The notes under the pieces: model-generated
Database searches by the model: none
What the model was told of the DNA's origin: nothing
What the model saw: only the letters and a program-made list of their open reading frames with translations
Source: Candidatus Heimdallarchaeota archaeon
GTDB taxonomy: Archaea > Asgardarchaeota > Heimdallarchaeia > JABLTI01
Reading direction: 5' to 3'
Assembly (NCBI GenBank): GCA_019058275.1
Contig: JAHLVW010000061.1
Location: forward strand, 1 to 64,000
Length of the DNA: 64,000 bases
Shown here: positions 5,527 through 11,329 of the stretch, piece after piece
How the letters are laid out: each line of letters opens with the position of its first letter
Position numbering within the stretch: position 1 is the stretch's first letter
Program-made: the position numbers and the translations under genes

Positions 5527-5591
5527 AAGTTAATTCCTATTCATTAGTCTTATGTGAACAAAAAAAAGAGGAAAATAAATTGAATAAATAT

Positions 5592-6089
5592 CTATTTTAG
5601 ATATTTATTCAATGATTCACCGAATTTCTTAGCTTGTTGAAGTTCTTCTTCATTCGGATGTCCTTTATCCATTGTACCGGGACCAAAACGGAAGAAACGA
5701 AATGTACCAGGGATGGCAAGTCTTTCTTTTGCTATTTTTGCTCCTTTATCTTCGAGTGCTTTTTGCATTAATTCAAAAACCAAATCTTTGATAATACCTG
5801 CTTCTGGTCCTTGACCTAATGGAGGATTATCAGGACCTCCTGCACAAATAAACATAACTGCATTCTTACCTTTCAATTGCTCAGGATCTAGCTTTGAAAT
5901 CTTTTTCTTCCAATGGGGACTTGGATTACCTGCAAGTACCCAGGTACCAAGAACAATTAGATCATAGTCTTTTAAATCAGGCATTTTTTTGTACTGCACT
6001 AATTCTGCACCCAAACCCTCAGCAATATTAATTGCAACTTTCTTGGTGTTTCCACCACGTGAATTATAAATAACAATTGATTTAGTCAT
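5592..6089 (-). CDS. Flavodoxin-like protein
   Basis: YNSRGGNTKKVA phosphate loop and C-terminal HPNEEEL..A..FG. ATG 6089 preferred as start. Confidence 0.88.
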   Translation of the reverse strand: MTKSIVIYNSRGGNTKKVAINIAEGLGAELVQYKKMPDLKDYDLIVLGTWVLAGNPSPHWKKKISKLDPEQLKGKNAVMFICAGGPDNPPLGQGPEAGIIKDLVFELMQKALEDKGAKIAKERLAIPGTFRFFRFGPGTMDKGHPNEEELQQAKKFGESLNKYLK

Positions 6090-7496: not shown

Positions 7497-7584
7497 GCTC
7501 TATATTTGATCTGGTTTTAATTACTAATATCAAATTCATCTTAATTTCTAAAGATGTTTTGGAAAGAAAAAAACCAAAAAATAT

Positions 7585-7693
7585 CTATTATAGATATTTC
7601 TTCAAAGATTCACCAAATTTCTTGGCTTATTGAAGTTCTTCTTCAGTAGGATGACCTTTGTGTATTGAACCAGGACCCCAACGAATTAATTTA
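7585..7693 (-). pseudogene. Orphan 3' remnant of a flavodoxin gene; direct repeat of ~10702-10813
   Basis: Translates KLIRWGPGSIHKGHPTEEELQ*AKKFGESLKKYL*. Shares TGACCTTTGTGTATTGAACCAG and CTTCAAAGATTCACCAAATT with the other copy. Confidence 0.85.
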
Positions 7694-7833: not shown

Positions 7834-8085
7834 ATGTCAGTTGATTCAAAGAATGTAATTAAAGTTGATTGTCTTGGCGAAACCTGCCCAATGCCTTTAG
7901 TTGAAACTAGGAAAGCTATACGAAAAGCTTCACCTGGTGATATTATTGAGGTAATTGGTAATCATGAGTCTTCAAAAAAAGAGATACCTATGGCTGTTGA
8001 AGCACTTGGATTAGAACTTTTAGGTATTGAAGAAAAAAAGGGCAATTGGTTAATTCGAATTAAAATTCCTGAGGAGAAGAGCTAA
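7834..8085 (+). CDS. tusA: TusA/SirA-family sulfur carrier
   Basis: VDCLGETCPMP (CPxP motif), 83 aa. Confidence 0.92.
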   Translation: MSVDSKNVIKVDCLGETCPMPLVETRKAIRKASPGDIIEVIGNHESSKKEIPMAVEALGLELLGIEEKKGNWLIRIKIPEEKS

Positions 8086-8087
8086 TC

Positions 8088-8507
8088 ATGACAGAAAAAG
8101 CTACGATAATTGTTCACAGTGGTGATTTTGATAAAATATATAGTGCACTTATAATTGGAAATGGAGCTCTAGCAATGGGTATGGATGTCTCTTTATATTT
8201 CACTTTTTTTGGACTAGAGAGACTGAAAAAGGGTGCATTGAACAAAGGAAAACTCTCAAGGATGCATTTTCTTGGTTTAGGTAAGTGGATGATTAAACGA
8301 AAAATGAAGAAAGTTAATGTTCGCTCCTTAGAAGGCTTATTATCTGATTTTGTTGAATTGGGAGGAAAGATATTAGCATGTGATATGACCATGGAAATAA
8401 TGGGTATAAAGAAAGAAGACCTAAGAGATGAAGTCATTACTGATTATTGTTCTGTAGGAACTTATGTTAAAGAAGCAAAAGAATCAGATTTAACGCTGTT
8501 TATCTAA
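8088..8507 (+). CDS. DsrE/DrsE2-family sulfur carrier
   Basis: YFTFFGL, ACDMTMEIMG, C-terminal TLFI. Confidence 0.9.
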   Translation: MTEKATIIVHSGDFDKIYSALIIGNGALAMGMDVSLYFTFFGLERLKKGALNKGKLSRMHFLGLGKWMIKRKMKKVNVRSLEGLLSDFVELGGKILACDMTMEIMGIKKEDLRDEVITDYCSVGTYVKEAKESDLTLFI

Positions 8508-8519
8508 TGAGTTGATAAA

Positions 8520-9692
8520 ATGAATAAGAAATTAATTTATATGGATAATGCTGCAAGCTCTCGACTTGATGAGAGAGTTTTGGAAGCAATGAAACCCTAC
8601 TATTTTGATACTTATGCTGTTGCCACTTCTGAATTTGCTTATACTCTTGGTATTTTGTCTAGAGAAGGATTAGATGAAGCAAGAAAGAAGATTGCATTGA
8701 AACTAGGAGGAACAGAAGAAGAATTAATCTTTACATCAGGTAGCACAGAATCAAGTAATTTAGCAATAAAAGGAGTTGTGAAGGCAAAACAAAAAGAGGG
8801 AAACCATATAATCGTTTCAAAAATTGAAGATTTTCCAGTTTTGAATAGTACTAAAGCTTTGGAAAGAGAAGGATTAAAGGTTACATATTTGGATGTAGAT
8901 AAAGATGGAATAATTGATCTAGAACAATTAAAAGAATCCATAGATAAAAATACAATTCTAATCTCAATCCAGCATGCAAATCAAGAAATTGGAACAATTC
9001 AGGATATTAAAGCTATTTCAGAAATTAGTCAAGATAAAAACATTCTATTTCATACTGATGCTACTCATGTTTTCACAAGATTACCAATTAATGTGAGAAA
9101 AATACCAGTAGATCTAGTAACTATTTCAGCGCATACTCTAAATGGTCCAAGAGGAATTGGAGCATTATATATCAAAAAAGATACTCCAATTAAGAAACAT
9201 ATGGATGGAGGATTTCAAGAGAATAATATGCGAGCTGGTGTTGAAAATATTCCAGGAGCAGTTGGTTTCGCAAAAGCAGTTGAATTAGTTGTAAAAGAAG
9301 AAACTGATAAAATAAAAAATATAAGAGATAATCTAATAGATAAAATACTAAAAGAAGTACCTGATACTGACCTAAATGGTCATCGAATAAAGAGAATTCC
9401 ACAAAATGCAAATATTACATTTCATTATGTAGAAGGAGAGTCAATTACTTTACATCTTGATATGAATGGAATAGCTGTGAGTACAGGTTCTGCTTGTTTT
9501 AGTAGGTCTTTAGAAGCAAGTCATGTAATTTTAGGTATTGGAGGGGACCATGAACAAGCACATGGTTCAGTACGATTTACTTTTGGTCGATTTAATGATA
9601 TGAATGAAGTAAATACTGTTGTCAAGGTTATTTCTGATGTAGTGAAAAGATTAAGAGAAATTAGTCCTCTTTACAAGAAAAACAAGGAGTAA
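8520..9692 (+). CDS. iscS: IscS/NifS-like protein with degenerate PLP site (probably not a cysteine desulfurase)
   Basis: YMDNAA, FTSGSTESSN, ANQEIGTIQ and STGSAC are retained. SAHT replaces SxHK, EDF replaces EHx, DATH replaces DAxQ. Confidence 0.9.
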   Translation: MNKKLIYMDNAASSRLDERVLEAMKPYYFDTYAVATSEFAYTLGILSREGLDEARKKIALKLGGTEEELIFTSGSTESSNLAIKGVVKAKQKEGNHIIVSKIEDFPVLNSTKALEREGLKVTYLDVDKDGIIDLEQLKESIDKNTILISIQHANQEIGTIQDIKAISEISQDKNILFHTDATHVFTRLPINVRKIPVDLVTISAHTLNGPRGIGALYIKKDTPIKKHMDGGFQENNMRAGVENIPGAVGFAKAVELVVKEETDKIKNIRDNLIDKILKEVPDTDLNGHRIKRIPQNANITFHYVEGESITLHLDMNGIAVSTGSACFSRSLEASHVILGIGGDHEQAHGSVRFTFGRFNDMNEVNTVVKVISDVVKRLREISPLYKKNKE

Positions 9693-10345
9693 TGAAAAGA
9701 ATGAGATTACCATATAGTGAAAAAGTTTTAGATCATTTCAAGAATCCAAGAAACGTTGGTGAAATTGAAGATCCTGATGGAAAAGCAGTAGAAGGGAGTC
9801 CTGCATGTGGAGATATGGTTCAACTAACACTTAAAGTGGATGAAAAAACAAGGAAAATTACAGATATCAAATTTAAAAGCTATGGTTGTGCATCAAATAT
9901 AGCAACTGGGTCCATCATTACAGAAATTGCAAAAGGGAAAACAATTGATGAAGCTAAAAAGATATCATGGAAAACTGCTTCTGAGGAATTAGGTGGTTTA
10001 CCAGCAGTAAAAGCTCATTGCTCTGTACTTGCAGTTTCTTCTCTTCGAGAAGCTATTAGAAATTATGAAGAAAAACAGGGAATTGTAAAAGACCCTGAAC
10101 CTACAAATGAAAAAGTAGTAAAGCGTCGTTTAAGTCATGTTATGAACCCATTAACAGGATTAGATGTAATTCGAACAAATCTAATTACAGATATCAAAAT
10201 AACAAATGGTGAGAAGAAAACCATAGAAGTGTCAGTTGATTTAACAGAAGATCACCAATATGCTAATAATGTAAAAGAAGAAATAAAAGAAAAACTCGAA
10301 TATCGACATGATGTAGAAAAGGTAATTGTTAGATTTAAAGAATAA
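9692..10345 (+). CDS. iscU: IscU/NifU scaffold with C-terminal DUF59/MIP18-like domain
   Basis: YSEKVLDHFKNPRNVG, ACGD, YGCAS, LPAVKAHC, plus an ~80-aa extension. Confidence 0.92.
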   Translation: MKRMRLPYSEKVLDHFKNPRNVGEIEDPDGKAVEGSPACGDMVQLTLKVDEKTRKITDIKFKSYGCASNIATGSIITEIAKGKTIDEAKKISWKTASEELGGLPAVKAHCSVLAVSSLREAIRNYEEKQGIVKDPEPTNEKVVKRRLSHVMNPLTGLDVIRTNLITDIKITNGEKKTIEVSVDLTEDHQYANNVKEEIKEKLEYRHDVEKVIVRFKE

Positions 10346-10433
10346 TTTCTTTTTTGCTTTTAATTTTCTTACAATATATTTATCATTCAGAATATTGTTA
10401 AGCGAATAGGCTGTTCTTTGTGATGAATATAAT

Positions 10434-10664
10434 ATGACTAAATATTATATAATAATTGAAAGAAAAGAATGTATTCAATGTGGTAATTGCTATGGATTAG
10501 ATCCATATCATTTTGAACCTGATGAAGAATATACATCTATAGTTGTTAATGGTGTAACAAATTCAGAAATTTCTAAGGGAGCTTTTGATGATGATAAAAT
10601 CTCATTAGCAAAACAAGCAGTAGAAGAATGTCCAGTAGAAATAATTTCTGTGAAAGAGCTTTAA
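10434..10664 (+). CDS. Single-cluster ferredoxin
   Basis: CIQCGNC ... CPVEII, 76 aa. Confidence 0.9.
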   Translation: MTKYYIIIERKECIQCGNCYGLDPYHFEPDEEYTSIVVNGVTNSEISKGAFDDDKISLAKQAVEECPVEIISVKEL

Positions 10665-10701
10665 ACCAATTTATGTGCACTTTCTTTTTTCATGAATGAA
10701 A

Positions 10702-11197
10702 TCATTTTAGATATTTTTTCTTCAAAGATTCACCAAATTCTATGGATTTTTGTAGTTCTTCTTCAGAAGGGTGACCTTTGTGTATTGAACCAGAACCCCA
10801 GTGAATGAATTTATAAACACGAACTATCGCAGTCGTTCTTTGACGATCTTTGCCCCTTAGCTTCAAGAATCTCTTCCATTCGTGTAAAAGCTATGTCTTT
10901 TTGGAGGATTTCTGTAACTTTCTTTTTCATAGGAAGTTCAGGACCCCCAGCAGTGATAAACAAGGCAACATTTTTACCTTTAATTGCTGCTGAATCGAGT
11001 TTCTTCATGAATTTCTTCCCAGCAGGACTAATTGTACTCATAATAAGCCATGTTCCAAAAACCATCAAATCATATTTTTTTAGATCTGGTATTTCCTTAT
11101 AGCTTACTAGTTCTGCTCCTAATCCTTCTGCAATTTTAGTTGCTACTTTTTTTGTATTTCCGCTTCGAGTATTATAGATAACAATTGCTTTTCCCAT
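10702..11197 (-). pseudogene. Flavodoxin-like protein (paralog of 5592-6089), frameshifted
   Basis: YNTRSGNTKKVA. Two 1-nt deletions near 10830-10856; the conserved tail GSIHKGHPSEEEL...YLK* resumes to TGA 10702. Confidence 0.85.
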
Positions 11198-11329
11198 AAC
11201 AAACACCGATAATGAAAATATAATAATATGTAAAAAAGTTGAAATCAAAAGAACTATTCTTTAAAACATTTTAAATTATAGTGCAAAAAATTTAAGTTAT
11301 AATTGTGAAAAGGAGCTATATGGGGAAAT

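Follow-up and report, generated by a model that had tools for sequence, protein, structure and literature searches.

A conserved tusA-dsrE-iscS-iscU cassette with a lysine-less IscS in a Heimdallarchaeota archaeon, and its candidate sulfur donors for iron-sulfur cluster assembly

Known systems with lysine-less IscS proteins or with TusA and DsrE carriers

Homologues of the cysteine desulfurase IscS that lack the Schiff-base lysine for pyridoxal 5'-phosphate (PLP) have been known since the Archaeoglobus structures, and the usual answer to the question of where the partner scaffold IscU obtains its sulfur has been free environmental sulfide. Another example is found in Candidatus Heimdallarchaeota archaeon, in a 64,000-nt stretch of contig JAHLVW010000061.1 (the window, to which all coordinates below are relative), where a lysine-less IscS is encoded within the gene cluster tusA-dsrE-iscS-iscU::DUF59-ferredoxin. 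Genes for TusA and DsrE stand upstream of iscS in two lysine-less lineages, which points to candidate sulfur donors and brings the question within reach of tests on only four small proteins.

As summarised by Deere et al. (PMC7585200), the lysine of Archaeoglobus fulgidus IscS2 is replaced by aspartate; the protein has no desulfurase activity and lends its loop cysteine as a ligand to the [2Fe-2S] cluster of IscU. The A. fulgidus IscS2-IscU pair (4EB5, 4EB7 and 4HVK, with the D199K variant in 4R5F) is like that of the window in that the lysine is replaced, the loop cysteine is kept and iscU is adjacent. It differs in that IscS2 belongs to another clade, where the lysine has become aspartate (SSND) and the PLP-stacking histidine is kept, in that its IscU is plain and lacks a DUF59 domain, and in that the TusA and DsrE partners of this type are of other subtypes than those of the window.

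An orthologous cassette with the same gene order is on record from Methanosarcina acetivorans, where isc1 comprises MA0811 (HIT), MA0810 (SirA-like), MA0809 (DrsE superfamily), MA0808 (IscS1) and MA0807 (IscU1) (Deere et al., 2020, PMC7585200, Fig. S1). IscS1 lacks the Schiff-base lysine and other PLP residues and carries the loop STGSACFS, and IscU1 is 24 kDa (PMC7585200), a mass that would suit an IscU extended by a domain such as DUF59. The Methanosarcina orthologues are 68-69% identical to the window IscS. In isc1 there is a HIT gene upstream, which is missing from the window, whereas the window adds a downstream ferredoxin; its host is moreover an Asgard archaeon, in whose phylum this type is rare (1 of 151 genomes sampled). 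The isc1 cluster has been drawn in a supplementary figure only, with no role proposed for MA0809 or MA0810 (PMC7585200).

The minimal iron-sulfur system MIS (MisS/MisU), found in archaea and anaerobic bacteria, is similar in having a two-component core of an IscS-like and an IscU-like protein, with no chaperones or A-type carriers (PMC13066941). The difference is that MIS has a working cysteine desulfurase, whereas the cassette of the window is predicted to have lost this chemistry and adds two carriers and a DUF59 domain. In E. coli, sulfur is relayed from IscS to TusA and on to TusBCD, and these DsrE-family proteins act as acceptors. The IscS and the carriers of the window belong to the same families as the proteins of this relay and of the DsrE/TusA relays in sulfur oxidisers, and the carriers have retained their cysteines. 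In those relays, however, TusA is loaded by an active IscS or by a rhodanese and sulfur moves away from IscS, whereas the window IscS would be unable to generate persulfide. The cassette falls within the ISC/MIS kind as a variant and does not make a kind of its own. No paper tying TusA or DsrE to a lysine-less IscS was found in the literature searched, whose coverage excludes most subscription journals; within that literature the link is undescribed, while the cassette itself has already been drawn but is uncharacterised.

Gene content and organization

The five genes of the cluster are as follows.

7834-8085, + strand: tusA, 83-aa sulfur carrier of the TusA/SirA family, with Cys18 in a CPxP motif (PF01206, 77 bits; cut-off 28.6)
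8088-8507, + strand: dsrE, 139-aa soluble DsrE2B-like protein with Cys98 (PF13686, DrsE_2, 122 bits)
8520-9692, + strand: iscS, 390-aa class-I IscS/NifS homologue of the SAHT type, without the PLP lysine (PF00266, Aminotran_5, 238 bits)
9692-10345, + strand: iscU::DUF59, 217-aa scaffold (PF01592, NifU_N, 155 bits, and PF01883, FeS_assembly_P/DUF59, 31 bits)
10434-10664, + strand: ferredoxin, 76-aa protein of the single-cluster 4Fe-4S type (PF13459, Fer4_15, 51 bits)

These co-directional genes form one operon, with 2 nt between tusA and dsrE, 12 nt between dsrE and iscS, a 1-nt overlap (TAATG) between iscS and iscU, and 88 nt between iscU and the ferredoxin gene. An earlier note on this DNA, made from the sequence alone, had described this layout, and its coordinates and spacings agree with the open reading frames (ORFs), the Pfam matches and direct reading of the sequence.

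The nearest solved structures to DsrE are 3PNX and 2QS7, which are of the DsrE2B type, and the protein stays under the equivalog threshold of the NCBIfam DsrE2 model (67 bits versus 210). The top NCBIfam matches of TusA are YedF selenium-metabolism models, far under their cut-offs. In the scaffold, residues 1-135 form the IscU part, with Cys39, Asp41, Cys66, Cys110 and an LPAVK motif, and the top PDB match of this domain is A. fulgidus NifU-1 in 4EB5. Residues ~142-203 form the DUF59 part, which scores 30.8 bits against a cut-off of 23.5 and is without cysteine. DUF59 members of the SufT/CIA2 type carry a conserved reactive cysteine; the fused domain is without it, as there is no cysteine column among 75 fused domains.

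Loss of the PLP residues in IscS

The window IscS has the fold-type I, class V aminotransferase fold, with a full-length PF00266 match, and its top PDB match is A. fulgidus IscS2 (4EB5), while all NCBIfam desulfurase models score it under cut-off. In an alignment with the canonical IscS of this genome and with solved structures, it has threonine at the position of the Schiff-base lysine (K206 of E. coli, motif SxHK), aspartate at the stacking His104, histidine at Gln183 and RAGVEN for RSGTEN, and the STGSAC loop is retained. Direct codon reading agrees with this, as 9120-9149 translates to T-I-S-A-H-T-L-N-G-P and 8823-8840 to I-E-D-F-P-V. The codons concerned are the following.

8829-8831, + strand: codon GAT of Asp104, at the position of the PLP-stacking histidine; unchanged in independent assemblies
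9066-9068, + strand: codon of His183, at the position of Gln183, which contacts O3' of PLP; from alignments, and invariant in the alignment of homologues used here (A1)
9135-9137, + strand: codon ACT of Thr206, at the position of the Schiff-base lysine; unchanged in independent assemblies
9495-9497, + strand: codon of Cys326, in the mobile loop STGSAC; present in 100% of 83 homologues

The lysine is absent from all of the 120 best homologues (68-100% identity, from a collection of 5.8 billion proteins), the commonest variants having threonine, and the motifs [IL][ED]DF[PS], DA[TS]H and [SN]TGSACFS are found in 120/120. These homologues carry the labels Asgard, Methanosarcina, Thermoplasmatota, Bathyarchaeia, Methanofastidiosia and Dehalococcoidales. 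In addition, two independent sediment assemblies (X3, depth 120, and X5) cover the stretch with 8 differences each, none of them in the critical codons. Since homologues and assemblies agree, loss of the lysine is a fixed trait of the family, and a sequencing error or pseudogene is excluded. The residues Thr206, Asp104, His183, RAGV and the retained Cys326 had all been read correctly in the earlier note, which had also been right to consider a sequencing error unlikely.

With Lys206, His104 and Gln183 all replaced, PLP chemistry has most likely been lost, and the window IscS is predicted from these residues to be non-catalytic and thus unable itself to take sulfur from cysteine. The former PLP pocket has been kept invariant and has not decayed, as E103-D104-F105-P106, H178/D180/H183 and H205-T206 do not vary in alignment A1. 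This invariance would fit a protein that is still an enzyme and holds PLP non-covalently, or another ligand, in a remodelled pocket. Its substrate could be cysteine, selenocysteine or some other compound of sulfur or selenium; TusA would then be the carrier, a role in keeping with its weak YedF likeness. However, three PLP contacts have changed together, there are no selenium genes within the cassette, and the inactivity of the A. fulgidus protein has been ascribed to the lysine substitution by Deere et al. (PMC7585200), so that a surviving enzymatic activity is considered very improbable.

A second conserved cysteine (I-C-x-E-K) occurs at residue 170 (~9027-9029) in 92% of SAHT-type proteins; the window has serine at this position.

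Conservation of the cassette across anaerobes

When a single genome was scanned for each prokaryotic species, at least 283 confirmed relatives were obtained, and the best 80 loci (L009-L088) were studied, 66 of which are evaluable, having enough flank on both sides. In 59 of these 66, tusA and dsrE lie upstream of iscS and iscU::DUF59 downstream, all on one strand. The co-occurrence of SAHT/EDF-type IscS with these partners, which had been proposed earlier as a check, is thereby borne out. The 80 loci come from at least 7 archaeal and at least 8 bacterial groups, each a lineage of known anaerobes. The evaluable loci, from more than ten phyla, include the Asgard archaea, Bathyarchaeia, Hadarchaeota, Thermoplasmata, Methanosarcinales and Methanomassiliicoccales on the archaeal side and Dehalococcoidia, Anaerolineae, Syntrophales, Clostridia, WOR-3, Atribacterota and Nitrospirota among the others. 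The synteny therefore extends across domains. The window IscS has the EDF, DATH, SAHT and STGSACFS motifs and falls within the SAHT clade, which has 100% support.

All thiols that a sulfur relay would use are conserved: Cys18 of TusA in 99% of 75 homologues, Cys98 of DsrE in 97% of 77, Cys326 of IscS in each of the 83, and Cys39, Cys66 and Cys110 of IscU in 96-99% of the cassette homologues. When all flanking ORFs were clustered, no additional family was present in more than 15 of the 80 loci, antisense shadow ORFs excepted. By its gene content and synteny, the four-gene core tusA-dsrE-iscS-iscU::DUF59 is a conserved cassette predicted to serve in building iron-sulfur (Fe-S) clusters, and it has probably spread laterally.

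Other genes occur beside the core in part of the loci, with a HIT gene upstream in 15 (typed on a Methanosarcina locus) and glutaredoxin downstream in 8. Ferredoxin and flavodoxins were ruled out as core components, as neither is conserved beside the cassette. In two Dehalococcoidia loci (L080 and L082), the SAHT cassette has 1-2 kb downstream of it a convergent iscS-iscU pair of the canonical, Lys-bearing type, so that two systems are physical neighbours.

A second lysine-less lineage with TusA and DsrE

The search was extended to 150 further genomes of the phylum of the host. No match above 50% identity was found in these 150 Asgard genomes, and the SAHT type is thus present in 1 of the 151 sampled; many of the IscS matches at 40-49% identity adjoin DrsE_2 matches. 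The first 75 IscS matches were fetched regardless of their neighbours, and were sorted by the residue at the lysine position as follows.

Aspartate or glutamate (SSND, the A. fulgidus motif), 41 loci: tusA within 2 kb on the same strand in 33, always upstream
Lysine, 28 loci: tusA within 2 kb on the same strand in 1, downstream
Arginine, valine, histidine or leucine, 6 loci: tusA within 2 kb on the same strand in 0; IscU in 5

The small proteins encoded upstream of the Asp-type IscS are genuine members of the TusA and DsrE families. The same is seen in the Methanosarcina phylum, where the 30 best matches of an SSND query comprise 24 SSND and 6 Lys types, with tusA and/or dsrE upstream in 22 of the 24 versus none of the 6. 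One SSND protein (L180) is ~90% identical to the crystallised A. fulgidus IscS2 and has tusA-dsrE directly upstream, dsrE ending 4 nt before iscS. A conserved linkage of lysine-less IscS to tusA and dsrE, whose absence would have told against the earlier note, is therefore present both in the SAHT cassette and in a separate Lys-to-Asp lineage. In an SSND-type cassette, L098, the IscU (2001-2804 of that locus, - strand) has a C-terminal extension of ~130 aa with a weak Pyr_redox match (E 0.002, under cut-off), which may be the remnant of a built-in reductase.

In a quick maximum-likelihood tree of 109 IscS sequences, the SAHT clade (100%) groups with the Lys-bearing L107 and with the Arg/Val/His/Leu clade (97%), while the SSND clade (99%) lies across a split with 98% support. 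As Lys-bearing relatives are found on both sides of this split, there have been at least two losses of the lysine. Between the two clades the partner proteins show little likeness, with 22% identity for DsrE and no BLAST alignment for TusA, and hence the partnership is either very old or has been assembled twice. A Fisher test of lysine state against the tusA link gives p = 6e-11 when phylogeny is ignored, a value that overstates the association, because the tree has only two independent changes of lysine state.

Candidate sulfur donors and the direction of sulfur flow

While lysine-less IscS proteins have been thought to work with free sulfide, the best reading of this locus, held with about even confidence and drawn from gene order and conserved residues, is that TusA and DsrE form a persulfide relay that would feed a non-catalytic IscS/IscU scaffold. 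In such a system, the window IscS would act as a dimeric platform holding IscU, like Archaeoglobus IscS2, with loop Cys326 as a persulfide acceptor and/or a fourth cluster ligand. The DsrE2B-like protein and TusA would bring in sulfane sulfur on their cysteines and hand it to Cys326 or straight to IscU; it would then be reduced to sulfide on the scaffold, for which the adjacent ferredoxin is the candidate reductant in the window. The fused DUF59 domain may assist in cluster hand-over, and the carriers might be loaded by polysulfide or another sulfane source, or by the canonical IscS/SufS of the host. We infer the mutual binding of these proteins, the inward direction, the loading of the carriers and the part of the ferredoxin; a complex prediction for the window IscS (alignment A1) with TusA (alignment A3) gave scores of 0.03 and 0.01, which have no bearing either way. 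Should sulfur indeed reach the scaffold through the relay, Fe-S biogenesis would have one more route by which sulfur enters. An inward relay would also bear on the MIS/SMS debate over ancestral cysteine-independent cluster assembly, and on cluster building in methanogens, Asgard archaea and organohalide respirers.

A number of findings weigh against this reading, among them the Lys-bearing clusters with carriers, the third lysine-less clade and the canonical genes of the host described further below. The nearest characterised DsrE2B did not react with six sulfur compounds in vitro and accepted no thiosulfate from TusA or DsrE3A (PMC4175335), and the orthologous isc1 cluster is uncharacterised because IscS1 formed inclusion bodies on expression (PMC7585200). 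Independent contrasts of lysine state with tusA/dsrE adjacency rest on 2 contrasts only and have no power. The ferredoxin gene is found downstream in 4 of the 80 loci (L010, L011, L052 and L069), or in 3 of the 66 by a stricter count over evaluable loci; it was earlier counted as a component of the system, but is a lineage-specific accessory gene of the operon that lies outside the conserved unit.

The association with carriers is also not confined to lysine-less proteins. Heimdall/Hodarchaeota contigs (L107, L220, L221 and L222) have clusters of the order iscS-iscU-tusA-dsrE, without dsrE in L222, and the gene of a 58%-identical Hodarchaeota protein stands in the order iscS-iscU-tusA. L107 and its relatives have the canonical Lys, His and Gln and are the nearest Lys-bearing kin of the SAHT clade, and the DsrE of L107 is of the window's DsrE2B-like subtype (DsrE hidden Markov model, 228 bits). 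Given such clusters, the carriers are not exclusive to lysine-less IscS, and for those of the L107 type an outflow of sulfur from an active IscS would be the natural reading. A conserved gene of 126-136 aa with no Pfam match lies immediately upstream of iscS in L220-L222.

By analogy with these kin, which share the DsrE2B-like subtype, and with E. coli, where TusA is an acceptor of sulfur from IscS (PMC13066941), sulfur might also flow outwards in the window: IscS-IscU would obtain sulfide or cluster sulfur, and Cys326 would pass sulfur to TusA and DsrE for thio-cofactor synthesis or tRNA thiolation. An IscS without PLP chemistry, however, has no known route to persulfide. Nearly all cassettes retain IscU, whose fusion partner DUF59 is a domain connected with Fe-S maturation, and in the lysine-less cassettes the carriers stand upstream, not downstream, of the scaffold pair. 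Outflow is therefore regarded as unlikely; if it does occur, it would be a new PLP-free way to make protein persulfides.

A third lysine-less clade from Asgard archaea (L109, L113, L114, L115, L120 and L129), which has the motif DAH[R/V/H/L]IHG and threonine or valine at the stacking histidine, has IscU adjacent in 5 of 6 loci and tusA or dsrE nearby in 0 of 6. The existence of a lysine-less clade with IscU yet without tusA is in keeping with free sulfide being the sulfur source, in which case TusA and DsrE would be accessory proteins that buffer reactive sulfur, sense it or detoxify it, or that shield the thiols of the scaffold, and would not supply the cluster. Such a source has been proposed for A. 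fulgidus and for methanogens; in methanogens and in the SMS system, Fe-S assembly is supported by sulfide (PMC12192291; PMC13066941), and the failure of DsrE2B to bind any sulfur compound in vitro (PMC4175335) points the same way. On the other hand, synteny and carrier cysteines have been kept over vast distances in two lysine-less clades, which argues for an obligate partnership, and the reductant genes that recur beside the cassettes (ferredoxin, glutaredoxin and the weak Pyr_redox-like tail) fit the reduction of persulfide and not free sulfide. A purely accessory role of the carriers is accordingly thought improbable.

The earlier note had proposed much the same flow, from DsrE and TusA through the loop cysteine of IscS to IscU. 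This interpretation has held up in part, in that the carrier, loop and scaffold cysteines are 96-100% kept and the linkage is seen in two lineages, but it is weakened by the Lys-bearing tusA-dsrE kin and by the third clade without tusA.

Fe-S assembly genes of the host and of other cassette bearers

The host assembly (G000) is 4.1 Mb and 93% complete. It also encodes a canonical IscS (SSHK, His104, Gln183) together with a plain IscU on contig 5, and a SufS-like protein on contig 2. With these genes in the same genome, cysteine may remain the ultimate source of sulfur, as the canonical IscS or the SufS-like protein could load TusA, and the designation 'cysteine-independent' given to the system earlier is not borne out for this host. 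The SufB/SufD core domain (PF01458) was not found in this 93%-complete assembly, while it is present in 14 of 14 control genomes, and the host may rely on IscS/IscU-type systems only. Elsewhere in the genome there is a separate sulfur-relay locus (L089; contig 89, 82726-85935), where a DsrE2-like gene, whose product is 39% identical to the window DsrE, shares its strand with tusA, and two DsrE/DsrF-like genes run divergently from this pair.

Among five further genomes with the cassette that were searched, two, those of a WOR-3 bacterium and a Hadarchaeote, were found to be without a Lys-bearing desulfurase, in metagenome assemblies that may be incomplete; the other PF00266 matches in these two are transaminases. 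In some anaerobes, then, as in the WOR-3 and Hadarchaeota assemblies searched, the cassette might be the sole IscS-type system. The SAHT IscS would have been re-tooled, its pocket, which is invariant in both domains of life and has gained Asp104 and His183 beside the retained Asp180 and His205, holding a metal such as the iron for delivery or a sulfane substrate, and would form with TusA, DsrE and IscU::DUF59 a self-contained, cysteine-independent Fe-S synthase. This bolder proposal is considered doubtful.

Insertion context in the window

The window has three copies of a 117-nt sequence that belongs to the 3' end of a flavodoxin gene, at 5574-5690, 7567-7683 and 10687-10803. The first closes an intact flavodoxin gene, the second stands as an orphan a short way upstream of tusA, and the third closes a second flavodoxin gene, which is frameshifted; the second and third copies, with 82% and 62% identity to the first, bracket the cassette. 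The three copies may be the trace of an insertion into an array of flavodoxin genes. The nearest cassette bearers (L009-L011) have only the five cassette genes in common with the window and none of the flanks. Taken together, the bracketing flavodoxin copies, the unshared flanks and the rarity of the type in the phylum suggest that the cassette was acquired as a unit.

No empty site was found in a genome of the same genus (G123), which has only RsmB in common and no synteny, making this search uninformative. One cold-seep contig (X6), which is short and of low depth, runs from 7693 directly to 10860 and so skips the cassette; it may represent another flavodoxin paralogue and was not used.

The second flavodoxin gene (10702-11248, - strand) is split into overlapping frames, with ORFs at 10811-11248 and 10702-10866. 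In the independent assembly X5, one extra base follows 10830, another follows 10852, and 7 nt are inserted after 10691, and in view of these insertions the frameshift may be strain-specific or an assembly error.

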